Assembly (NCBI GenBank): GCA_963700145.1
Contig: OY969474.1
Coordinates: forward strand, 3,552,001-3,616,000
Direction of reading: 5' to 3'
DNA from: an uncultured Acidobacteriota bacterium
Lineage (GTDB): Bacteria > Acidobacteriota > Thermoanaerobaculia > Multivoradales > UBA5704
DNA length: 64,000 nt
Positions within the stretch are counted from its first letter, which is position 1, and every line of letters begins with the position of its first letter. The position numbers were made by a program, and so were the translations under genes. A model generated the notes under the pieces. The model did not search any database, was not told the origin of the DNA, and saw only the letters and a list, made by a program, of their open reading frames with translations. This document shows, in pieces, positions 19,664 through 58,769 of this stretch.

Positions 19664-20113
19664 ATGACCCAGCACGCGACGCTCAGCCTCGAGCGCTGGC
19701 GCGAGTTCGGCGCCAGCGAGCAGGTGCTCATGATCGCCAACGAGATGCACCGCGCCTCGCTTCTGCTCGGCCCGGGTGACGGCGACAGCCGCCGCAACGC
19801 CTACGAGCGGGTGCTTCGGCTCGCCGATCTCACGATCCAGGCCCAGGAGCGCCCGGGCTTGCGCCGGGAGCTGCTGCTCTGGCGCGGCCTCGTGGCCGAG
19901 ATGTACATCGCCGGCGAGCCGCGCCCGGCGAGCCACCTCGCAGCCCTCCAGGCCCTGCTCCTCCTCGACCCGGTGGCCGCCCGCCAGCGGTCGTACGTCC
20001 TGCCGCGGGCGGCGGCCGCAGTCTCTTCCTCGGCTGAGCCGTCGGCGTCGCCCTCCTCCCCCACGCCGGCCGGGAGTGTCTCCCGGGTCGGTTCCCGTCA
20101 ACGCGCTCCGTAA
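19664..20113 (+). CDS. Hypothetical helical protein
   Basis: ATG, host-like codon usage; RW...EQVLMIANEMHRA; low-complexity tail. Confidence 0.6.
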   Translation: MTQHATLSLERWREFGASEQVLMIANEMHRASLLLGPGDGDSRRNAYERVLRLADLTIQAQERPGLRRELLLWRGLVAEMYIAGEPRPASHLAALQALLLLDPVAARQRSYVLPRAAAAVSSSAEPSASPSSPTPAGSVSRVGSRQRAP

Positions 20114-20583
20114 AGGAGAGTCCCCATGCCGCGTGCACCCTTTCCCGAAAGCCGGTCGGCGATCAGCTCGGCCACCTCACTGAAGACGCGAGCCCCCTTA
20201 TCGCGGAACTGCCGCGCGGTTCTCCCGTCGCGTGGGTACATCTGGATCTGCCGAAGCCAAGGAACCTTCCTCCACGCGCAACGCTCGACCAGCACCGGAA
20301 ACAACGGCATTCCCTCCCGGCTTCGGTCCAGGAGAAGGGGAATCTCCTGCCGCGTCACGAAACTGGAAGACAAATAAGCCGCGGAGATCAGACAAACCGC
20401 AGCCGCTGCCGAGGCCGTCGCTTGATGGAGCTGCTCCTCCCAGGCGGTGCCCGTCTCGATTCCACAGTCGTCCCACACCTCGATAATGCCGAGCTGCTCG
20501 AGTACCCCTAGGTGCGTTCGCAGGCGCTCCTTCCAGAGCTCGTCGGGGCGGCTGTAGCTCAGAAATACACGGGGCGGTGGCAC
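20098..20583 (-). CDS. Stand-alone TIR (TIR_2) domain protein
   Basis: VFLSYS, WDD..I..G..W, LISAAYLSSSF and QEIP (putative catalytic Glu). Confidence 0.88.
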   Translation of the reverse strand: MPPPRVFLSYSRPDELWKERLRTHLGVLEQLGIIEVWDDCGIETGTAWEEQLHQATASAAAAVCLISAAYLSSSFVTRQEIPLLLDRSREGMPLFPVLVERCAWRKVPWLRQIQMYPRDGRTARQFRDKGARVFSEVAELIADRLSGKGARGMGTLLYGAR

Positions 20584-21029: not shown

Positions 21030-22488
21030 GGGGATGCCCCGTTCCCTGTTGAAAGCCGAAAGAGGGAAAGCGGCTCGGTTGATCATGCCACGGCCTTGGT
21101 GTTCGTCGGTTCCTCGATCGCCGCGAGCGCGAGCTCGAGAGCCCCGAGGTGCCGATGTCCCTTGACACGCCGGAAGCCAGCCTCCGCGTCACACAGCGCC
21201 AGGGCGACCCAGCGCAGCACCATGTCGCCGCCGCGCCAGCGCTTGACGTTGCGCGTCGTCGTACGGATCGAGCCGATCGTGTTCTCGATCGCGTTGGTCG
21301 AGGCGAGCAACCGGCGCAGAGCGTCGGGCAGCTTCAGCCGCAAGGCGGTGAGGGTCTCGTCGAGGCCCTCGCGCAGGCTGCCCGCGGCGCCCGCGTGGCC
21401 TGCGTGCTCGAGCCAGCGGGCAAGCTGCTCGAGGCGACGCTTGGCGAGGTCGAAGCGAGCGCTCTGGTAGGCCTCGACCATCAGGCGGTCGACCCGGGCT
21501 TGGAGCTGCTTGGGCAGGTGGTCGCGGACGTTGCGGCGCTTGTGGAGCTGGCAGCGCTGGACGTGGGTTGCGTCCCCGAAGACGGCGCGCACGGCCTTGC
21601 GCAGCCCCTTGCCGCCGTCGAGCACCGCCAAGAAGCGCGGCGGCATCGCGAGGCCTCGCTCCAACAGCTCCTGGAGCAGGCCGGTACAGAGCGCCGCGTT
21701 CTCCGTCGCGCCTTCACGCAGGCCGAGCACCCGCTTGGTCCCGTCGCGCGCGATGCCGAGTGCCACCACCAGGGTGTGGCCGGCCACCTCCAGCCCGTCG
21801 ATCATCAGGATCAGGGGCTGGAAGTCCGACAGGTCTCGGCGCAGCCACGCGCCCAGCAGACGACGCGTCCCCGCCACCAGCCGGCGCTGGACCGCACTCT
21901 TGCTCGTCGCGCGCTCCGGCACCGACTCTGCGAGCGGCTCCAAGCTCCGACCGTAGCGGCGCTGCGAGACGCCGACCAGCGCCTGCTCGATCACCCGCTC
22001 CGTGAAGGGATCTTCGTCCTGAAAGGCGCGCACCGAAGGCAAGCTCATCTCGCCACCGTCGCGTCGCCGGACGCGCGGTCGCGGCAGCGCCACCTGGCGG
22101 CCACCCAGCACGAACTCGCTCGCCGTCGAGCCCCAGCGGTACGCCTCGCGGGTCGGATTGCGCCGACGCTTCGGACCGACGACGGCCTCGACCTCGTCCG
22201 CGAGCTGCCGCCCCAGGGCCTCGACGCCCGCGGCGTGAAACAGCTCCAGCAGCCCCTGGCGGCTGGCCTCGATGCCCTCGACCATCGGCCGCAGCAGCGC
22301 TTGTAGCCCGTGGCTGATGCGCGCCGCACGGCCCCCTTGCCACACCACCCGCCTTTCTGCTCTCGTCTTCATCACGGCTCCTTGGCCCCCTGGCGGGGCC
22401 GGTTATTCGACCAACCCGATTCTCGATCAGGTGGGCCGAGGAGCCGCCTTCACCTCATTGCTCTTTCAACAGCGGGAGGGACAACCCC
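21030..22488 (-). mobile_element. IS256-family element, copy 1 (1459 bp)
   Basis: Imperfect IRs GGGGTTGTCCCTCCCGCTGTTGAAAG / GGGGATGCCCCGTTCCCTGTTGAAAG; flanks GGTTGAGAC and CGACGTTGG do not match each other. Confidence 0.95.
21083..22375 (-). CDS. IS256-family DDE transposase
   Basis: LMIDG, DGGKGL, QRCQLHK, STNAIE. Confidence 0.95.
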   Translation of the reverse strand: MMKTRAERRVVWQGGRAARISHGLQALLRPMVEGIEASRQGLLELFHAAGVEALGRQLADEVEAVVGPKRRRNPTREAYRWGSTASEFVLGGRQVALPRPRVRRRDGGEMSLPSVRAFQDEDPFTERVIEQALVGVSQRRYGRSLEPLAESVPERATSKSAVQRRLVAGTRRLLGAWLRRDLSDFQPLILMIDGLEVAGHTLVVALGIARDGTKRVLGLREGATENAALCTGLLQELLERGLAMPPRFLAVLDGGKGLRKAVRAVFGDATHVQRCQLHKRRNVRDHLPKQLQARVDRLMVEAYQSARFDLAKRRLEQLARWLEHAGHAGAAGSLREGLDETLTALRLKLPDALRRLLASTNAIENTIGSIRTTTRNVKRWRGGDMVLRWVALALCDAEAGFRRVKGHRHLGALELALAAIEEPTNTKAVA

Positions 22489-22519
22489 CGACGTTGGTAT
22501 CGAGGACTCGGATTACCAT
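22489..22519 (-). pseudogene. PIN (VapC) toxin 5' fragment interrupted by IS
   Basis: MVIRVLDTNV, starts overlapping the antitoxin stop; continues after IS copy 3. Confidence 0.75.
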
Positions 22520-22758
22520 CCGGGATCGCGATCCTTACGGACGATCTCGGCGCTATCCGCCATCGGTCCGAACGAGTCGCGGAGCCGCCGGAGGCGATTG
22601 ATGGCCTCGGCGGGCTCGTCGCCGCGCCCGAGTTCGCGGTCCAGGAGGGTTCGCGCCATCTCCGATATGCCGACTTGATGTTCCTGCGCCTCCCGCCGGA
22701 GACGCTCCACGAGAGCCTCGTCGAGCATCAGGTTCACGCGCTTGAGAGGAGAGGCCAT
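22513..22758 (-). CDS. Ribbon-helix-helix antitoxin-like protein
   Basis: KRVNLMLDEALVERLRREA...GISEMAR; DSAEIVRKDRD tail typical of VapB partners. Confidence 0.75.
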   Translation of the reverse strand: MASPLKRVNLMLDEALVERLRREAQEHQVGISEMARTLLDRELGRGDEPAEAINRLRRLRDSFGPMADSAEIVRKDRDPGW

Positions 22759-22799
22759 CGTCCGAAGCCGGCAGCTTACACATTGTACACACTTGGTCC

Positions 22800-22964
22800 G
22801 TGCTCCTGCCGGATGCGCTGACTTTCGCGATCCGCCATGACGTCACGGTGTACGACGCCGTGTTCGTCGTCCTCGCGCGGCAGCTCGGAGGCGAGCTCAT
22901 CACCGCCGACAGAGTGCTCTGGGACAAACTCGCCGGTGACTGCCCCTGGGTGAGGAAGCTGTAG
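22800..22964 (+). pseudogene. PIN-domain C-terminal fragment
   Basis: VLLPDALTFAIRHDVTVYDAVFVVLARQLGGELITADRVL; no N-terminal half in frame. Confidence 0.7.
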
Positions 22965-22985: not shown

Positions 22986-23654
22986 TCACGTCTCCCAGAA
23001 CTGATCGCGCAGCCCGATGCGGTCGAAGATCTGCCGGATCTCGGCGCCCATCGGGCGGCGCGCTTCGGGGGTGAGGCGACTCGCGTACCAGGCTTGGGCC
23101 AGCTCCCAGAGCTGGTCGAGGGAGACGAGCGGCCGCCGCGGCAGGTTGCGCTGCCGGCACCAGCGCTCGACGTGCTCTTCCGACCGGAAGAGGAGCATCG
23201 TGCTTCAGGTGTAGGCGATGTCGTCCCACCACTGCTTGGCGGGGACGGCGAAGTGGGCGACGCACGGCTCGGGCTCCGGCGCGCCGCCGCGCACCCGCAG
23301 CCCGATCGGCTCGCCGCAGCAGGCGCAGCTCGCCTCGACGTCGGCGTCCCGGTGCAGCGCCGCCGCGATCCCGAGCGCGTCCCAGACGCAGTTGCCGAAG
23401 TAGGAGCGCCCGCCCGAGCGCACCAGAAACGTCGTCGGCACCGCCGAGAACGGCGGCGCCATGACGATCTCCCCCGTCTCCGGCGCCAACGCCAGGAGCC
23501 GCCGCCCGTTCAGCCGCCGAAACGCCTCCAGCACCTCGGAGGCCCCGCACCCGAGCCGCCCCGCCACCTCCGCCGCTCGCGACGGGCGGCCGCTCTCGGC
23601 GGTGGTGCGGTAGACGTCGAGTTGGACTCTAGGGTCGAGGGTCTCGGGGTCCAT
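22986..23654 (-). CDS. MerB-like organomercurial lyase family protein, probable selenoprotein (UGA at 23207-23205)
   Basis: ORFs 23205..23654 and 22986..23198 share a frame across one TGA (DIAYT-U-STMLLF); MAPPFS, NCVWDALG and CACCG motifs. Confidence 0.85.
23175..23192 (-). promoter_or_regulatory. Candidate SECIS hairpin
   Basis: CTCTTCC-GGTC-GGAAGAG, stem starts +13 after the UGA, loop G at +20. Confidence 0.7.
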
Positions 23655-23715
23655 GGCGGAATCCTCGCACGGTCCGCCGCTAGGACGCGGCTGTTGCTAG
23701 GATCGCCACGAAGCC

Positions 23716-24339
23716 ATGGTCGAGATCCTGCCGATCGAGCGCGAGGAAGCCTTCTGGTCCGGCGTCGAGAACGCCAAGAGGTTCTTCATGGGCGAAGCCG
23801 ACGTGCAAAGGGCCCTGGAGCGGTTGGCGCGCCTGCTCGACGAGAAGGAAATCCCCTACGCCGTCATCGGCGCCATGGCGCTCAACGAGTGGGGCTACCG
23901 GCGGGTGACCGTTGACGTCGATGTCCTGCTGGCCCCCGAGGGGCTGAGCGCCCTCAAGGCCGAGGTTCTAGGCCGCGGCTACCTCGAGAAGTTCCCGGGG
24001 AGCCGCGGCCTGCGGGACACCGAAGCCGGCGTCAACGTCGACGTCGTCCTCGCCGGCGAGTACCCGGGGGACGGCAAGCCGAAGCCGGTCGTTTTTCCCG
24101 ACCCGGCGCAAGCCGCCGTCCGCGGCCGACGCGTGGCGCTCCTGCCCCTGCCGAAGCTCATCGAGCTCAAGCTGGCGTCAGGCCTGAGCGCGCCGCACCG
24201 CCTGAAGGACCTCGCCGACGTCCTGGAGCTCATCCGGCAGCTCGCCCTTCCCCGCGAAATGGCCGAGTCCCTCGACCCCTCGGTGCGGGCCAAGTACGAG
24301 GAGCTCTGGCAGGCGGCACAGACGCCGGAACGGGAGTGA
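23716..24339 (+). CDS. Nucleotidyltransferase-family protein (AbiEii/DUF6036-like)
   Basis: YAVIGAMAL...RVTVDVDVL, LIELKL, KDLADV. Confidence 0.75.
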   Translation: MVEILPIEREEAFWSGVENAKRFFMGEADVQRALERLARLLDEKEIPYAVIGAMALNEWGYRRVTVDVDVLLAPEGLSALKAEVLGRGYLEKFPGSRGLRDTEAGVNVDVVLAGEYPGDGKPKPVVFPDPAQAAVRGRRVALLPLPKLIELKLASGLSAPHRLKDLADVLELIRQLALPREMAESLDPSVRAKYEELWQAAQTPERE

Positions 24340-24344
24340 GCTCT

Positions 24345-24590
24345 ATGCCGACCTTGCAGCAGACCATCAAGGCAGTCGTCCGGCCCGGAGAGGACTCCGG
24401 CTACGTCGCCGAATGCGTCGAGATCGCCGTCGTCACGCAAGGCCGCACCCTCGACGAGACCGTCGCGAATCTGCGCGAGGCCGTGGGCCTGCACCTCGAG
24501 GGCGAGGACCCGGCAAGCTTCGGCCTGCGCCCGAACCCCACTTTGATCCTCACCCTGGAGCTCGAGCCGTCGCATGCCCGGGCTTCGTAG
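24345..24590 (+). CDS. hicB: HicB-family antitoxin
   Basis: GYVAEC...TQGRTLDETVANLREAVGLHL. Confidence 0.88.
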   Translation: MPTLQQTIKAVVRPGEDSGYVAECVEIAVVTQGRTLDETVANLREAVGLHLEGEDPASFGLRPNPTLILTLELEPSHARAS

Positions 24591-24813
24591 GCTTTCGGGC
24601 CGCGAAGTCGTTTCAACCCTTCAGCGCTTCGGGTTCCAACCCGTCTCCCAACGGGGCAGCCACATCAAGCTGCAACGGGAAACGCAGTCCGGGCGCCAGA
24701 CCCTGACGGTGCCGGCCCACAGCGAGCTCGATTCAGGGACCTTGCGCGCCATCTACCGCCAGGCGAGCCGCTTCGTTCCCGAGGACGATTTGCGCCCCCT
24801 CTTCTACGCCTGA
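24574..24813 (+). CDS. hicA: HicA-family toxin
   Basis: SGREVV..L.RFGF, QRGSHIKL, VPAH.EL..GTL..I. Confidence 0.9.
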   Translation: MPGLRRLSGREVVSTLQRFGFQPVSQRGSHIKLQRETQSGRQTLTVPAHSELDSGTLRAIYRQASRFVPEDDLRPLFYA

Positions 24814-24875
24814 GCCTGTTTCTCAGCAGGTCCCCCGGAGTCAGAATGGTCGCCGCACCAAGCCGTGAGGCCTCC

Positions 24876-25085
24876 GAGATAAGTCTCCGAGCCCTGAAGA
24901 TGAATCTCGGACTGCCCAAGATAGATCTTCAGCTATGAGAGATTGATTTCCCGGTCCCGGAGATAGATCTCGGTACATAGAAGATCTATCCCAGACCCTC
25001 CAAGATCTATCCCAGAGCCTCCAAGATTTATCCCGGCGTCCCCAAGATAAATCTCGGGCTCCCCAAGATAATCCTCGAGGACCTC
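24876..25085. repeat. 21-nt-periodic array, 10 units, palindromic core AGATNNATCT plus variable ~10 nt
   Basis: e.g. AAGATGAATCTcggactgccc, AAGATAGATCTtcagctatga, GAGATAGATCTcggtacatag, AAGATAAATCTcgggctcccc. Confidence 0.85.
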
Positions 25086-25340: not shown

Positions 25341-26799
25341 GGGGTTGTCCCTCCCGCTGTTGAAAGAGCAATGAGGTGAAGGCGGCTCCTCGGCCCACCT
25401 GATCGAGAATCGGGTTGGTCGAATAACCGGCCCCGCCAGGGGGCCAAGGAGCCGTGATGAAGACGAGAGCAGAAAGGCGGGTGGTGTGGCAAGGGGGCCG
25501 TGCGGCGCGCATCAGCCACGGGCTACAAGCGCTGCTGCGGCCGATGGTCGAGGGCATCGAGGCCAGCCGCCAGGGGCTGCTGGAGCTGTTTCACGCCGCG
25601 GGCGTCGAGGCCCTGGGGCGGCAGCTCGCGGACGAGGTCGAGGCCGTCGTCGGTCCGAAGCGTCGGCGCAATCCGACCCGCGAGGCGTACCGCTGGGGCT
25701 CGACGGCGAGCGAGTTCGTGCTGGGTGGCCGCCAGGTGGCGCTGCCGCGACCGCGCGTCCGGCGACGCGACGGTGGCGAGATGAGCTTGCCTTCGGTGCG
25801 CGCCTTTCAGGACGAAGATCCCTTCACGGAGCGGGTGATCGAGCAGGCGCTGGTCGGCGTCTCGCAGCGCCGCTACGGTCGGAGCTTGGAGCCGCTCGCA
25901 GAGTCGGTGCCGGAGCGCGCGACGAGCAAGAGTGCGGTCCAGCGCCGGCTGGTGGCGGGGACGCGTCGTCTGCTGGGCGCGTGGCTGCGCCGAGACCTGT
26001 CGGACTTCCAGCCCCTGATCCTGATGATCGACGGGCTGGAGGTGGCCGGCCACACCCTGGTGGTGGCACTCGGCATCGCGCGCGACGGGACCAAGCGGGT
26101 GCTCGGCCTGCGTGAAGGCGCGACGGAGAACGCGGCGCTCTGTACCGGCCTGCTCCAGGAGCTGTTGGAGCGAGGCCTCGCGATGCCGCCGCGCTTCTTG
26201 GCGGTGCTCGACGGCGGCAAGGGGCTGCGCAAGGCCGTGCGCGCCGTCTTCGGGGACGCAACCCACGTCCAGCGCTGCCAGCTCCACAAGCGCCGCAACG
26301 TCCGCGACCACCTGCCCAAGCAGCTCCAAGCCCGGGTCGACCGCCTGATGGTCGAGGCCTACCAGAGCGCTCGCTTCGACCTCGCCAAGCGTCGCCTCGA
26401 GCAGCTTGCCCGCTGGCTCGAGCACGCAGGCCACGCGGGCGCCGCGGGCAGCCTGCGCGAGGGCCTCGACGAGACCCTCACCGCCTTGCGGCTGAAGCTG
26501 CCCGACGCTCTGCGCCGGTTGCTCGCCTCGACCAACGCGATCGAGAACACGATCGGCTCGATCCGTACGACGACGCGCAACGTCAAGCGCTGGCGCGGCG
26601 GCGACATGGTGCTGCGCTGGGTCGCCCTGGCGCTGTGTGACGCGGAGGCTGGCTTCCGGCGTGTCAAGGGACATCGGCACCTCGGGGCTCTCGAGCTCGC
26701 GCTCGCGGCGATCGAGGAACCGACGAACACCAAGGCCGTGGCATGATCAACCGAGCCGCTTTCCCTCTTTCGGCTTTCAACAGGGAACGGGGCATCCCC
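25341..26799 (+). mobile_element. IS256-family element, copy 2, with intact 9-bp TSD
   Basis: ACGTCGTTG at 25332-25340 and 26800-26808. Confidence 0.96.
25454..26746 (+). CDS. IS256-family DDE transposase
   Basis: Translation identical to copy 1. Confidence 0.95.
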   Translation: MMKTRAERRVVWQGGRAARISHGLQALLRPMVEGIEASRQGLLELFHAAGVEALGRQLADEVEAVVGPKRRRNPTREAYRWGSTASEFVLGGRQVALPRPRVRRRDGGEMSLPSVRAFQDEDPFTERVIEQALVGVSQRRYGRSLEPLAESVPERATSKSAVQRRLVAGTRRLLGAWLRRDLSDFQPLILMIDGLEVAGHTLVVALGIARDGTKRVLGLREGATENAALCTGLLQELLERGLAMPPRFLAVLDGGKGLRKAVRAVFGDATHVQRCQLHKRRNVRDHLPKQLQARVDRLMVEAYQSARFDLAKRRLEQLARWLEHAGHAGAAGSLREGLDETLTALRLKLPDALRRLLASTNAIENTIGSIRTTTRNVKRWRGGDMVLRWVALALCDAEAGFRRVKGHRHLGALELALAAIEEPTNTKAVA

Positions 26800-27348: not shown

Positions 27349-29790
27349 ATGAACATCGTTAAGAAGTTCAAAGATAGTGGCGCCACTTCCGAGGCTAAGG
27401 TCACTGTGGACATAAGCTACGACATCATCCGGCACGTGTCGGCGCAGCTCTACACGAGCCCCCGGAAAGCCATTGAAGAGCTAGTCTGCAACTCTTATGA
27501 CGCTGGCGCTTCCGAGTGCCATGTCACCGTGCCGCTACTCACCAAGGACCCCCTGCTCGTACTTGACAATGGCAAGTCGATGGATGTCCACGGCCTGCAC
27601 GGTTTATGGCAGGTCGCTAGCAGCCCAAAGGCGGTTCCGGACGGTCAGCCCAGAATTGCCAATCGCCGCATGCAAATAGGAAAGTTCGGGGTCGGAAAGC
27701 TCGCAGCTTTTGCTCTTGGAAGCAGTCTAACCCATGTCGCCTGCGTCAAGGGCGCTGTACGAATGATTTCAGTTAACCAAAGCCAGATTAGAGACAAGGC
27801 GCACGGAAGGCGGCCAACTTTCGACGTTTTCAACCTTCCGATGTCCAAGGCGAGGCCGCTTCTCGAAAATCTCTTAGCGGACCTTCCCAAGCCGTGGGAC
27901 CGAGGCTGGCCAACCTGGACTCTCGCGATGGTAGACAATATCGAAGAAGGCGCGATAGCGCAGTCGTTGAAGATTGGAATCCTGCGGCGCATGATTGCTT
28001 CGGCGCTCCCGATATCCTCGAAATTCAAAATATTCTTGCAAAAGGATCTCGTGCCCCTTCGAGAACTGGACCCCGAAAGCATCGAGGTCACCGTCAACGT
28101 ACTGGACAAGGCGTTCCGCGAGGTTCTCACCGCCTCACTGCGAGAGTACTGGGCGGAACGGCTTGGCGAAGCTCCAGAGGCGATCCCCACTGATCTCTAC
28201 ACCCTTCAAGTAGTGAAGGTTCCTGACCCAGAGAATGTTACGCGGCGCGTTACGGCGTTACATGTGCCAGACCTAGGAGCAATCTTTGGAAAGGCAGTCT
28301 CCACAAAGACTTCGCTCACTACGGATAAGCTAGAAGGGCGTGGCTACTCAAACAATGGCTTCGCGGTAACTGCGTATGGGAAGCTGATCAATCCGGAGGA
28401 CCCTCTCTTCGGGGTGACCCAGCGCAGTCACAAATACTGGAGCCGGTTTCTGGCGCGGGTGGAAATGCCGGGCCTCGATAAGGTTCTGTTGGTGCAACGG
28501 AATGCCGTCTCTGAAAACTCCCCCGAGGCCCAACTTGCCCGCGAGGTGCTCCGGTCGCTTTTCAATTACACCAGGACTCTTGTCGAAGCACACGAAGACA
28601 GCGACCAGTACGATCCCGGTTCCTTTGGTAAGCGGTTGGCGACGTCTTCACCAATCCTGGCACAAGCCGCCCTCAAGGGACTCTTTGAAGGTCCCGTCGG
28701 GCCAGACGATCTCCTCAAACTCTCGATCGAATTCGCCACGCTCGGCACATCCGGTCCTCCTGCCACACTGGACGCCGACTCAAGGACTCTCTTCGTCAAT
28801 GAAGACCATCCTCTTCTGGCCGCCATGGACCATCTCGGTGCCCTCTCTAAACAGATGCGCCGGGTCATCGGCGAGGTGCTCGGCGGGATTGAAGTTGGCA
28901 AGGGATATCTTCGCGCCCGCAGAGTGCCGGAGATTGTAATCACCGAGACAAGTGAGCTTCTTGATGCCTCTCAGCGGAGCGCCGCTGACTTCGTACGCGA
29001 TACCGCCGAGCAACACATTGCTGAGATTTATGACGCCTCCTTTGGCGGTAAGGAGCCTTTCGAGAAGGCGGTGGTTGAGGCCTTCCGCAGCCTGCGCTTG
29101 GCTGCCCACCATTATGGCAAGCCGGACCAACCCGACGGCATCATTGAAATTCCTCGATCTGGCGAGGGCAACCTTCGTATCTCAGTCGAGGCCAAGGGCA
29201 GCCACGGCCTGATCACTCATAAGGAGTTAAGTGAAGCAACGATCAGCCGCCACAGCGGTGACCATGCCTGCCAGCACGCCATTGCGATTGCCCGCGAGTT
29301 CGCCAAGGCGGGCCGCGCTGGCAAAGACAGTGCTCTCCTCCGGGAAACGAAGGGTAAGGTTCCTCTTCTTACGGTAGACGGCATTGCTCACATGCTTCGC
29401 TTGCATAAACGTCGGAACTTCACTTACGACAAGATCGCTCGGATTCTGACGACGTGGACCCATCCAGATGATCTCGTCCGGTTCATTGAGGAGATCTGGC
29501 GCGAACTGCCTGAGCTTGGCCTTATGCGCTTGATCCTCACCGTAGCGCACGACCTCATCACGCAGGACTCCACTAACCTCCCTGAGGTGGGGATGATTCT
29601 CGCAGACCCACGCATCCGCAAGAAGAAGGTCAAGAGAGAGGATGTTGTTACTGTTCTCGAGGCTGTTCAGATTACGACGAGGATGATTACAATCATCGAT
29701 CCGAGTGCTCACCGCTTCGAGCTGAACGCCCCCGTCCAGACAATTCTGGAGGCGATGCAGGTGGAAGGACTCTCCGATAGTTCGCACTGA
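27349..29790 (+). CDS. GHKL (MORC/HSP90-like) ATPase fused to PD-(D/E)xK nuclease
   Basis: EELVCNSYDA, DNGKSM, GKFGVG; later FEKAV...PDGII...VEAK; lower GC than the host genes. Confidence 0.82.
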   Translation: MNIVKKFKDSGATSEAKVTVDISYDIIRHVSAQLYTSPRKAIEELVCNSYDAGASECHVTVPLLTKDPLLVLDNGKSMDVHGLHGLWQVASSPKAVPDGQPRIANRRMQIGKFGVGKLAAFALGSSLTHVACVKGAVRMISVNQSQIRDKAHGRRPTFDVFNLPMSKARPLLENLLADLPKPWDRGWPTWTLAMVDNIEEGAIAQSLKIGILRRMIASALPISSKFKIFLQKDLVPLRELDPESIEVTVNVLDKAFREVLTASLREYWAERLGEAPEAIPTDLYTLQVVKVPDPENVTRRVTALHVPDLGAIFGKAVSTKTSLTTDKLEGRGYSNNGFAVTAYGKLINPEDPLFGVTQRSHKYWSRFLARVEMPGLDKVLLVQRNAVSENSPEAQLAREVLRSLFNYTRTLVEAHEDSDQYDPGSFGKRLATSSPILAQAALKGLFEGPVGPDDLLKLSIEFATLGTSGPPATLDADSRTLFVNEDHPLLAAMDHLGALSKQMRRVIGEVLGGIEVGKGYLRARRVPEIVITETSELLDASQRSAADFVRDTAEQHIAEIYDASFGGKEPFEKAVVEAFRSLRLAAHHYGKPDQPDGIIEIPRSGEGNLRISVEAKGSHGLITHKELSEATISRHSGDHACQHAIAIAREFAKAGRAGKDSALLRETKGKVPLLTVDGIAHMLRLHKRRNFTYDKIARILTTWTHPDDLVRFIEEIWRELPELGLMRLILTVAHDLITQDSTNLPEVGMILADPRIRKKKVKREDVVTVLEAVQITTRMITIIDPSAHRFELNAPVQTILEAMQVEGLSDSSH

Positions 29791-29796
29791 GGGCTT

Positions 29797-31170
29797 ATGC
29801 AAGATTCCGAACCCCGCCCCCCTAGTTGCGACTTGGCTGTCACGCCCTTGTGTCCCTCGGCGTTGTTGGGATGGGATGATTCTCATGGTCATCGCTTTAC
29901 TCATGACTTGTTCAAATTCCCCGGCAAATTTCACCCACCGATTGTCGAGAACATCCTTAAGCGCCTCTGCCCGCGCACCGTGATCGATCCGATGGCGGGC
30001 GTTGGCACCGTATCTGTTGAGGCGAAGGCCGCGGGAATAGCGTCGCTCTCCATTGACGTCGATCCAGTCAGCGTCTTCATAGCCCGTGCTAAGACGACTC
30101 CCATCTCGCGCGCGGCTCTTGAAGATGCCTGGAGTGACTTTCAACCGGTCCTCCGACGGATCCGGAGGTCCGCAAGAGAGATTGAGCGCCTGCGATTCGA
30201 GGATATTGCTCTAGCCACGATGCGCAGGCGCCTGGCTACGAACGGCCACAGGGGACTTGCTTCCCTCCAGTACTGGTTTCGTCGGTATGTTCTCGCCGAT
30301 TTTGCCCTCCTCGATCACTCGATTTGGAACGGCGGGTTGGAACGGCGTGGAGCGGTAGTGCGCCGGTTTTTCAAGGCCTGCCTGCTGAGCGCGGTGAGGC
30401 GTATCAGCAATGCAGATCCGTATCCAGTTAGCGGCCTGGAGATAACGAAGCATATGCGGGAGAGGCTTACTCATGGATACGTCATCGACGTTGCGAGCGA
30501 GTTCGAGCGCCGAGTGCTTCTCAATATTGAGCGAATGGCGGCATTCTATCAATACCTCGAGGAGCGTCGACAGCTAGGTACGCCGGTTCAGATAATTCAG
30601 GCTGATTGCATCAGACTCGTGCAGATCAAGGAGCGGTGGGCCCCTGAGGTGGATCTCATACTATTTTCGCCACCGTACTGCAACGCCATCGAGTACTGGC
30701 GGCGGCATCGGCTTGAGTATTTCCTGGGAGGGTTCCTTACCCCGGATGCCATTCCGGAAATTCAGAGGCGTTTCATAGGTCGACGCACGATCGGCCGTCG
30801 CTCGGCCGAAAGGCCACCATCTCTCAACCAGAAGCAGATAGACCTGCAAATCAAGTCTCTGCATGAAGAAGGACGTCGGGAAAAGGCATGGCAACTTTGG
30901 AATTACTTTCACGACATGGGTTTACGGCTAGAGGTGTTCTGCGAAACTCTGCGCGCGGGTGGCGTGGCGGTTCTCGTCGTCGGTGACAGCCACACCGGTG
31001 GACACAGAATTCCGACAGCGGCCATTCTGCAGGACCTAGCCGAGAAGAAGGGTTTCGCGGTTGAGACTACTGCTTGTTACTCGATCATGAACCGCTCAAT
31101 GCAGTATCCCCTGAAGGAAGGCTCCGCGAAGATTGCGGACGAGACCATCGTCGTTCTGCGCAAACCGTAG
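29797..31170 (+). CDS. DNA methyltransferase, probably N4-cytosine
   Basis: FPGKF, DPMAGVGT (motif I), FSPPY (motif IV). Confidence 0.88.
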   Translation: MQDSEPRPPSCDLAVTPLCPSALLGWDDSHGHRFTHDLFKFPGKFHPPIVENILKRLCPRTVIDPMAGVGTVSVEAKAAGIASLSIDVDPVSVFIARAKTTPISRAALEDAWSDFQPVLRRIRRSAREIERLRFEDIALATMRRRLATNGHRGLASLQYWFRRYVLADFALLDHSIWNGGLERRGAVVRRFFKACLLSAVRRISNADPYPVSGLEITKHMRERLTHGYVIDVASEFERRVLLNIERMAAFYQYLEERRQLGTPVQIIQADCIRLVQIKERWAPEVDLILFSPPYCNAIEYWRRHRLEYFLGGFLTPDAIPEIQRRFIGRRTIGRRSAERPPSLNQKQIDLQIKSLHEEGRREKAWQLWNYFHDMGLRLEVFCETLRAGGVAVLVVGDSHTGGHRIPTAAILQDLAEKKGFAVETTACYSIMNRSMQYPLKEGSAKIADETIVVLRKP

Positions 31171-57310: not shown

Positions 57311-58769
57311 GGGGTTGTCCCTCCCGCTGTTGAAAGAGCAATGAGGTGAAGGCGGCTCCTCGGCCCACCTGATCGAGAATCGGGTTGGTCGAATAACCGG
57401 CCCCGCCAGGGGGCCAAGGAGCCGTGATGAAGACGAGAGCAGAAAGGCGGGTGGTGTGGCAAGGGGGCCGTGCGGCGCGCATCAGCCACGGGCTACAAGC
57501 GCTGCTGCGGCCGATGGTCGAGGGCATCGAGGCCAGCCGCCAGGGGCTGCTGGAGCTGTTTCACGCCGCGGGCGTCGAGGCCCTGGGGCGGCAGCTCGCG
57601 GACGAGGTCGAGGCCGTCGTCGGTCCGAAGCGTCGGCGCAATCCGACCCGCGAGGCGTACCGCTGGGGCTCGACGGCGAGCGAGTTCGTGCTGGGTGGCC
57701 GCCAGGTGGCGCTGCCGCGACCGCGCGTCCGGCGACGCGACGGTGGCGAGATGAGCTTGCCTTCGGTGCGCGCCTTTCAGGACGAAGATCCCTTCACGGA
57801 GCGGGTGATCGAGCAGGCGCTGGTCGGCGTCTCGCAGCGCCGCTACGGTCGGAGCTTGGAGCCGCTCGCAGAGTCGGTGCCGGAGCGCGCGACGAGCAAG
57901 AGTGCGGTCCAGCGCCGGCTGGTGGCGGGGACGCGTCGTCTGCTGGGCGCGTGGCTGCGCCGAGACCTGTCGGACTTCCAGCCCCTGATCCTGATGATCG
58001 ACGGGCTGGAGGTGGCCGGCCACACCCTGGTGGTGGCACTCGGCATCGCGCGCGACGGGACCAAGCGGGTGCTCGGCCTGCGTGAAGGCGCGACGGAGAA
58101 CGCGGCGCTCTGTACCGGCCTGCTCCAGGAGCTGTTGGAGCGAGGCCTCGCGATGCCGCCGCGCTTCTTGGCGGTGCTCGACGGCGGCAAGGGGCTGCGC
58201 AAGGCCGTGCGCGCCGTCTTCGGGGACGCAACCCACGTCCAGCGCTGCCAGCTCCACAAGCGCCGCAACGTCCGCGACCACCTGCCCAAGCAGCTCCAAG
58301 CCCGGGTCGACCGCCTGATGGTCGAGGCCTACCAGAGCGCTCGCTTCGACCTCGCCAAGCGTCGCCTCGAGCAGCTTGCCCGCTGGCTCGAGCACGCAGG
58401 CCACGCGGGCGCCGCGGGCAGCCTGCGCGAGGGCCTCGACGAGACCCTCACCGCCTTGCGGCTGAAGCTGCCCGACGCTCTGCGCCGGTTGCTCGCCTCG
58501 ACCAACGCGATCGAGAACACGATCGGCTCGATCCGTACGACGACGCGCAACGTCAAGCGCTGGCGCGGCGGCGACATGGTGCTGCGCTGGGTCGCCCTGG
58601 CGCTGTGTGACGCGGAGGCTGGCTTCCGGCGTGTCAAGGGACATCGGCACCTCGGGGCTCTCGAGCTCGCGCTCGCGGCGATCGAGGAACCGACGAACAC
58701 CAAGGCCGTGGCATGATCAACCGAGCCGCTTTCCCTCTTTCGGCTTTCAACAGGGAACGGGGCATCCCC
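57311..58769 (+). mobile_element. IS256-family element, copy 3
   Basis: Same ends as copies 1 and 2; flanks GTCTCAACC and CCAACGTCG. Confidence 0.95.
57424..58716 (+). CDS. IS256-family DDE transposase
   Basis: Translation identical to copies 1 and 2. Confidence 0.95.
   Translation: MMKTRAERRVVWQGGRAARISHGLQALLRPMVEGIEASRQGLLELFHAAGVEALGRQLADEVEAVVGPKRRRNPTREAYRWGSTASEFVLGGRQVALPRPRVRRRDGGEMSLPSVRAFQDEDPFTERVIEQALVGVSQRRYGRSLEPLAESVPERATSKSAVQRRLVAGTRRLLGAWLRRDLSDFQPLILMIDGLEVAGHTLVVALGIARDGTKRVLGLREGATENAALCTGLLQELLERGLAMPPRFLAVLDGGKGLRKAVRAVFGDATHVQRCQLHKRRNVRDHLPKQLQARVDRLMVEAYQSARFDLAKRRLEQLARWLEHAGHAGAAGSLREGLDETLTALRLKLPDALRRLLASTNAIENTIGSIRTTTRNVKRWRGGDMVLRWVALALCDAEAGFRRVKGHRHLGALELALAAIEEPTNTKAVA

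Follow-up and report, generated by a model that had tools for sequence, protein, structure and literature searches.

A MerB-like gene with a predicted selenocysteine at the second catalytic cysteine position in an uncultured Acidobacteriota bacterium

A gene for a MerB-like selenoprotein was located at 22986..23654 (minus strand) of the window, the whole stretch of 64,000 nucleotides that was analysed. The gene encodes 222 amino acids and its codon 150, an in-frame UGA, is very likely decoded as selenocysteine (Sec). The preliminary description had proposed that Sec takes the place of the second catalytic Cys of MerB, and this predicted replacement is supported by a TGA in 97 of 97 distinct loci, alignment with MerB Cys159, a covarying hairpin and the selenocysteine machinery of the host. 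As to function, we lean modestly towards a stand-alone metal-carbon lyase with a main substrate that is probably not limited to methylmercury.

The split reading frame and conservation of its TGA codon

The gene was divided in the ORF list into a 149-residue ORF (23205-23654) and a 70-residue ORF (22986-23198) of the same frame. As had been described, the two are a single frame broken by one TGA at 23207-23205, and together they are one intact MerB-fold gene. The WWDDIAYT-U-STMLLFRSEEHV context of the codon and the NCVWD motif were likewise present as claimed. A Shine-Dalgarno-like GAGGA at 23662..23666 (minus strand), recognised from the sequence, lies 7 nt ahead of the ATG, and the terminal stop is a TGA at 22988-22986 (minus strand). 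GC3 is of coding type in both halves of the gene (0.96 and 0.93) and all seven Trp residues are encoded by TGG.

The in-frame TGA (codon 150; 23205..23207, minus strand) was assigned as the predicted Sec codon by alignment to MerB, in which U150 falls on Cys159 of the MerB and MerB2 structures. The aligned position is also Cys in 38 of 38 TGA-free sister proteins and in 9 of 9 MerB or outgroup rows, in agreement with the Cys/Sec pairing that had been expected.

At the protein level the best 120 of 823 database proteins found at E ≤ 1e-10 were compared. In 116 of these the last residue is the one directly ahead of the TGA and in one the protein stops earlier still; the remaining three continue past the site, with Gly, Trp or Cys there. 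The database entries are fragments of ∼146 residues, some of them labelled 'organomercurial lyase'. A named match with 89% identity suggests that the host is probably a member of the Thermoanaerobaculia. Searched without a profile, 50%-identity representatives yielded 736 matches at E ≤ 1e-10, many of them truncated at residue 149.

At the DNA level the sample consisted of 20 loci from related genomes (the window's own included; the gene is carried by 19 of 60 relatives) and the best 80 of 572 confirmed genome stretches. Codon 150 was TGA in 100 of 100 loci, with the frame open for another 72-86 codons in 99 of them. Removal of three duplicates left 97 distinct loci, in all of which codon 150 is TGA and never TAA or TAG; terminal stops in the same loci are TGA (66), TAG (22) and TAA (9). 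The commonest phyla among the best 80 loci were Acidobacteriota (29), Gemmatimonadota (13), Verrucomicrobiota (12), Chloroflexota (9) and Eisenbacteria (6), followed by Planctomycetota (3), Bacteroidota (2), Krumholzibacteriota (1), Calditrichota (1) and four loci with no phylum name, so that the single-TGA form is found in at least nine named phyla. Relatives in assembled contigs of four DNA runs cover the hairpin region with no TGA variant among the rows listed; these rows were not counted as evidence. In one locus (L084:6436-6483) the conserved Trp165 codon, 14 codons past the Sec codon, is a TGA as well, which is probably the mark of a pseudogene or an assembly error.

The SECIS-like hairpin and host selenocysteine machinery

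A SECIS-like hairpin with a 7-bp stem and a 4-nt loop is located at 23175..23192 (minus strand), where the gene encodes L155-E160. The arms span +13..+19 and +24..+30 after the TGA and the loop (23185-23182) opens with G at +20, exactly as the preliminary description had it. The loop presumably resembles the E. coli fdhF element. A rule for bacterial SECIS elements places the apical loop 16-37 nt past the UGA (PMC10778597), which the loop start at +20 fits, and an apical hairpin of 5/6 bp is given as a common core in epsilon-proteobacteria (PMC4607533).

The folding energy of the hairpin alone is unremarkable (z of −0.8 to −2.0 in four windows). Among 84,425 TGA trinucleotides of the genome, 62 precede a stem of this kind with a GG-first tetraloop at +17..+37. 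Across 91 distinct rows the seven stem pairs are 98.0% paired with 35 both-side changes, a level reached by 0 of 500 shuffles, and partners slid along the alignment pair at 49-63%. RNAalifold recovered the same stem and no conserved lower stem in the hairpin region. Codon usage was compared in 95 full-length members, leaving out one partial member and one with a second TGA. Codons 155-159 are each represented by a single codon in 95-100% of members; for 106 other conserved codons single-codon use has a mean of 56% and a maximum of 89%. All 39 Sec forms have R157 and E159, residues that occur in 13 and 19, respectively, of 38 TGA-free sisters, from which it follows that the constraint acts on the RNA and tracks the UGA.

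The host genome is a single contig, 95% complete. It encodes a tRNA with a UCA anticodon, an 8-bp acceptor stem and a long variable arm, features of the Sec type, together with selB (362 bits), selA (443 bits) and selD (340 bits); selD has its own TGA with a downstream hairpin. A check for the machinery had been proposed, and tRNA-Sec, SelA, SelB and SelD were thus all found. SelA genes were present in 17 of 19 related carriers, both misses being fragmented MAGs, and in 47 of 50 carrier genomes of other lineages (50 of 77 non-redundant loci). Since 39 of 41 non-carrier relatives have selA too, the gene does not discriminate within the order.

The hairpin and the tRNA also bear on the alternative that the TGA is not a Sec codon and is instead a real stop (the gene being split or a pseudogene and the 70-aa ORF beginning at an ATG at +7), a sequencing error, or a codon recoded as Trp, Cys or Gly. 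An ATG is indeed present three codons past the TGA in 91 of 97 loci, gene callers give two ORFs and the energy z-score of the single hairpin is weak. However, in 6 of 97 loci ATC or ATT occupies +7, a position at which Cys homologues have Met or Ile as well; a stop at a codon that is TGA in every locus would remove a catalytic residue. Both halves have coding-type GC3, Trp is written TGG throughout and TGA serves as the terminal stop, the UCA-anticodon tRNA has Sec-type features and the hairpin covaries. We therefore consider any of these readings highly improbable next to insertion of Sec.

Predicted protein, its clade and genomic neighbourhood

PF03243 (Pfam MerB) matches residues 69-190 of the predicted protein, spanning the TGA, with 109 bits against a cut-off of 27, and sequence matches in the PDB are MerB2 (5C17, E 4.5e-13) and MerB. 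NCBIfam scores were all below cut-off: 48 of 193 bits for PRK13239, 40.7 of 140 for the SaoL model NF040728 and 31 of 200 for NF033555, with best E values among 86 members of 2e-19, 4.7e-16 and 2e-16, respectively. An AlphaFold2 model was built from an 86-sequence alignment (pLDDT 97.4, pTM 0.93). All 11 Foldseek matches at E ≤ 0.001 were MerB or MerB2, VIA-align of the model with 5C17 gave Z 18.7 and rmsd 3.6 over 189 residues, and ESM Atlas queried with a Cys homologue returned only MerB-labelled clusters. Identity to MerB is only 19-24%, and a shared fold is no proof of function.

The C89-x-x-D92 motif (23379..23390, minus strand) aligns with Cys96 and Asp99 of MerB, the Asp99 position being Ser in MerB2, and both residues are present in 95 of 95 members. 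C110 of the C110-A-C-C113 segment (23316..23327, minus strand) aligns with the structural MerB Cys117 and is variable across the family (Cys in 53 of 95, Asp in 39). Cys166 (23157..23159, minus strand) is a clade-specific conserved residue, Cys in 92 of 95, at a column where the commonest residues of MerB rows are Leu, Lys, Ala and Asn. Structure comparison of the model indicated a winged-helix-like N-terminal domain at residues 3-68 (23451..23648, minus strand), which superposes on the LexA N-domain with Z 9.9 and rmsd 2.2 over 65 residues and is aligned within MerB and MerB2 too. Alignment and structure comparison also delimited a C-terminal extension of residues ∼196-222 (22989..23069, minus strand) with a conserved F219-W220. 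The F219 and W220 columns are gaps in 9 of 9 MerB or outgroup rows, and alignments with X-ray MerB structures stop at ∼195-200 of the protein.

In a quick maximum-likelihood tree of 101 rows, with no clade test, the protein belongs to a clade of 78 rows (SH-aLRT 98) that is separate from the mer-operon MerBs. Within it, a 35-row core (SH-aLRT 97) is all Sec but for two Cys rows, and the remaining Sec rows are intermixed with weakly supported Cys-only branches; several Sec/Cys switches within the clade are likely on this topology. The clade is marked by N88, W91, H134, W142-W143, D145, C166 and the C-terminal F219-W220 extension. Cys-only sister branches comprise L107, L108, L132, L133, L135, L136 and L139 together with 50%-identity representatives, and in these branches the hairpin residues are not frozen. 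A Cys-only sister gene on Ralstonia megaplasmids is annotated 'hypothetical' and lies beside HxlR and DUF2000 genes. The proton donor of the lyase is thus not universal in the wider clade: Cys replaces Asp92 in 17 of 38 TGA-free sister proteins.

A second MerB-like clade (SH-aLRT 100) has TGA at both catalytic Cys positions (U-x-x-D + U). Its members are L114-L121 and L158 from genomes of the same class or phylum and L163-L242 from metagenomes, where at least 500 of 599 candidate stretches are relatives. Both TGAs and the Asp are present in 76 of the best 80 metagenome loci; the other four align over one site only and have TGA there. The first UGA is followed by a 5-bp hairpin of its own (97% paired). 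After the second UGA, the loop at +20 is that of the window gene, and U-A stands in place of the innermost C-G pair in 73 of 74. HgcA was found over cut-off in 3 of 9 two-TGA genomes vs 7 of 292 others, a comparison among kin that are not independent, and one two-TGA subgroup adjoins methyltransferase and ferredoxin-nitroreductase genes. A further two-Sec form (L113:3554-4303) lies nearer the clade of the window protein (the T-U clade) on a long branch; it reads U-x-x-E, is represented once and has the same hairpin core downstream of its second UGA.

Several of these observations touch on a reading in which the MerB fold is reused without bond cleavage, either with Cys89 and Sec150 as a redox pair (maybe recycled via Cys166) or in a protein for metal binding, sequestering or sensing that employs its winged-helix N-terminus. 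A redox role is ascribed to most selenoproteins (PMC9312934), and altered metal binding is reported for MerB2 and D99S variants (PMC8261052, PMC10114901). Cys166 is conserved as noted above, CxxC replaces CxxD in 17 of 38 sisters, and the N-terminal domain resembles the DNA-binding domains of LexA, GntR and DtxR (Z 8-10). Against this, Asp92 is invariant in the Sec forms (95 of 95), the winged-helix part is aligned in MerB itself, no residue is conserved in at least 60% of sequences at positions 32-40, the start of the putative recognition helix, and no conserved neighbour is available for regulation. We give little credence to this reading and prefer the metal-carbon lyase.

The gene had been described as lying among TA modules. 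TA-type neighbours are real, but of HicA, a HicB-like ORF, a PIN fragment and an RHH ORF near the gene, HicA alone scores above its Pfam cut-off. The RHH antitoxin-like ORF (minus strand) is divergent from the 54-aa PIN fragment at 22513-22964. Upstream of the gene, at 23716-24813, are a 207-aa ORF, the HicB-like ORF and HicA. The 207-aa ORF, which is nucleotidyltransferase-like by eye and matched nothing in Pfam or NCBIfam, is near the gene in L008 too. TA-like neighbours recur only in this same-genus locus, L009 having at most a short related ORF, and the most frequent neighbour family occurs in no more than 7 of 97 loci. The TA and IS context was rejected as a functional clue on the ground that no neighbour family exceeds 7 of 97 loci. 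The expectation that novelty would lie mostly in the context was accordingly not sustained: the TA context is local, and the novelty is a large clade distinct from the published SaoL.

Copies of a 1.46 kb IS256-family element lie on both sides of the gene, at 21030-22488 and 25341-26799, and a third starts at 57311; the genome has 21 near-identical copies. A composite transposon around the MerB-like gene was considered and rejected, as the right copy has its own 9-bp target duplication and there are 21 genomic copies. The flanking copies are read as recent insertions. The copies at 21030 and 57311 have exchanged flanks, pointing to recombination between them that inverted ∼22489-57310. Degenerate direct repeats at multiples of 21 nt occupy 24871-25075, between hicA and the IS copy. 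At 27349-31170 an 813-aa GHKL-ATPase protein with weak likeness to the restriction enzymes BbrUII/HgiDII is followed by a 457-aa methyltransferase-like ORF, and the two are probably a restriction-modification pair. A TIR_2 ORF is present at 20098-20583.

Mercury genes, proposed activity and comparison with known systems

The statement that merA and merR are missing nearby proved correct, no match to merA, merR, merT or merP being found in the window. Plasmid Mer proteins used as queries against the surroundings of the 97 loci (882 kb) gave a single weak MerR-family match and no other. In the host genome there was no MerA or MerR over cut-off and no MerT or HgcA match. Two MerA-like proteins of the host (401 and 356 bits against a cut-off of 454) were rejected as MerA; they are ∼35% identical to plasmid MerA, and the stronger is without the C-terminal Cys pair. 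MerA was over cut-off in 4 of 60 relatives, none of them among the 19 related carriers, and in 0 of 50 other carrier genomes (E ≤ 1e-128).

A sample of 301 genomes of the class, with G114 counted as one single-TGA row, was also searched. The PF03243 gene is present in 56 genomes as 64 matches, 52 of which have an in-frame TGA (43 one-TGA and 9 two-TGA forms, with 12 TGA-free), and the single-TGA form occurs in ∼42 genomes. MerA is present in 16 genomes and shares none with the 56 (3.0 expected, p = 0.034); this value overstates the case, as kin are not independent, most carrier genomes are incomplete MAGs and scoring for MerA took in the 5-25 best candidates of each genome. All that is claimed is the absence of a positive link between MerA and the PF03243 gene. 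HgcA was over cut-off in 1 of 42 single-TGA genomes, namely G224, which has the two-TGA form too. At G051:C73:14087-16789 (L131) a MerA-like gene interrupted by internal TGA and TAG stops lies between two canonical-type merB genes; the same genome has the Sec form elsewhere.

In the mechanism that we propose, SelB and Sec-tRNA would bind the hairpin loop so that Sec is inserted. Cys89 and the Sec150 selenolate would then bind the R-metal cation and Asp92 would protonate the carbon, releasing R-H. The metal product may be handed to cellular thiols or retained, since no MerA was found to take it, and at a guess Cys166 might assist in its handling. Relative to MerB, the substrate pocket may be reshaped by the Trp-rich stretch ahead of Sec and by the C-terminal extension. 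The earlier doubt about organomercury as the substrate seems reasonable and gains support because MerA was not found in the carrier genomes searched.

The same result bears on a rival reading, a dedicated methylmercury lyase with Sec for Cys159 that acts independently of MerA, with Hg(II) cleared by thiols or sulfide or else locked up as Hg-Se. In its favour, the Sec forms keep all three catalytic positions and the fold is that of MerB. However, no mer transport, regulator or reductase gene is near the gene in the 97 loci bar the one weak MerR-family match, MerA is found in 0 of 56 PF03243 carriers of the class sample and HgcA reaches cut-off in a single one of the 42 single-TGA genomes. Hg-Se binding is very tight and could hinder turnover. 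MerB without MerA is already common (895 genomes; PMC8261052), so the lack of MerA does not exclude methylmercury, and seleno-compounds demethylate it chemically (PMC10114901). Taken together we judge a dedicated methylmercury lyase unlikely and retain the metal-carbon lyase of wider substrate range.

A broader proposal is put forward tentatively and is, in our estimation, somewhat doubtful. Most MerB-family genes of the class, and many in other uncultured soil and sediment phyla, might be selenoenzymes of at least two uncatalogued clades (Cys/Asp/Sec and Sec/Asp/Sec). Together these would dealkylate methylmercury or other organometals independently of MerA and in many lineages, and merB surveys would overlook them, since the called proteins stop short of the third catalytic residue. 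Surveys described as filtering called proteins for Cys96/Asp99/Cys159 (PMC12484752, PMC8261052) would miss single-TGA genes. The 2021 survey lists no MerB in Acidobacteria (PMC8261052), vs 56 of 301 class genomes here, the genome sets being different. Should methylmercury be cleaved, the protein would be a candidate agent of mer-independent demethylation in soils; otherwise it points to unfamiliar chemistry of organometals or selenium. Because the one active site occurs naturally in Cys/Cys, Cys/Sec and Sec/Sec versions, the contribution of selenium can be tested directly.

The closest published system is SaoL, a MerB-like organometallic lyase selenoprotein (NF040728; Haft & Gwadz, bioRxiv 10.1101/2022.07.06.499078), for which the preprint remarks on high Hg-Se affinity. 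The protein has in common with SaoL its membership of PF03243, a Sec aligned with Cys159, the Cys and Asp equivalents of Cys96 and Asp99 and truncation by gene callers at the UGA, and non-mercury substrates have been proposed for SaoL too. The motif of SaoL is C-U, whereas the residue ahead of Sec is Thr in 93 of 95 members here and never Cys. The protein scores 40.7 bits against the SaoL cut-off of 140, and NF040728 was over cut-off in 0 of 401 phylum genomes. SaoL belongs to a nine-gene SAO locus; here neighbours do not recur, those in the window are TA and IS genes, and a whole-genome search of the host, which had no positive control, did not find SaoB or SaoC. SaoL was reported in 45 of 15,511 genomes, all anaerobes (bioRxiv 10.1101/2022.07.06.499078), whereas the single-TGA form is in ∼42 of 301 genomes of one class and spans at least nine phyla. 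Our tree has no true SaoL; L151, the nearest stand-in (102 bits, Cys only, on a long branch), is placed outside the clade. By its T-U motif, its score and its neighbourhood, which is not that of SAO, the protein is taken not to be SaoL.

No account of the T-U clade or of a two-Sec MerB was found in the literature searched, although BSepDB and Haft & Tolstoy 2025 may list members, and the June 2026 release of NCBIfam has no model for the T-U clade. Reviews of 2022 and 2026 have one MerB-like selenoprotein entry each, that of 2026 being SaoL with CU. MerB is not mentioned in the main text of PMC12013277, PMC13326102, PMC2398784 or PMC5029168.

With MerB (EC 4.99.1.2; 3F0O, 3F2F, 1S6L) and Bacillus MerB2 (5C17) the protein shares the fold and the winged-helix-like N-terminus, and with MerB the equivalents of Cys96 and Asp99 and, in the window protein, of Cys117. 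In MerB, Cys96 and Cys159 bind R-Hg+, Asp99 protonates the carbon and Hg(II) passes to MerA (PMC10114901). Unlike canonical MerB, which usually but not always goes with a mer operon or a MerA partner, the gene has no mer operon nearby, MerA was not found and the NF033555 and PRK13239 cut-offs are missed; with no mer genes nearby and MerA in none of the carriers searched, the protein is not a mer-operon MerB. It further differs from MerB in Sec for Cys159, the WW-x-D segment, Cys166 and the C-terminal F-W extension. Sec at the Cys159 position has been described for SaoL, and what is new here, as judged from the predicted proteins, is a large, Trp-rich T-U clade distinct from it.
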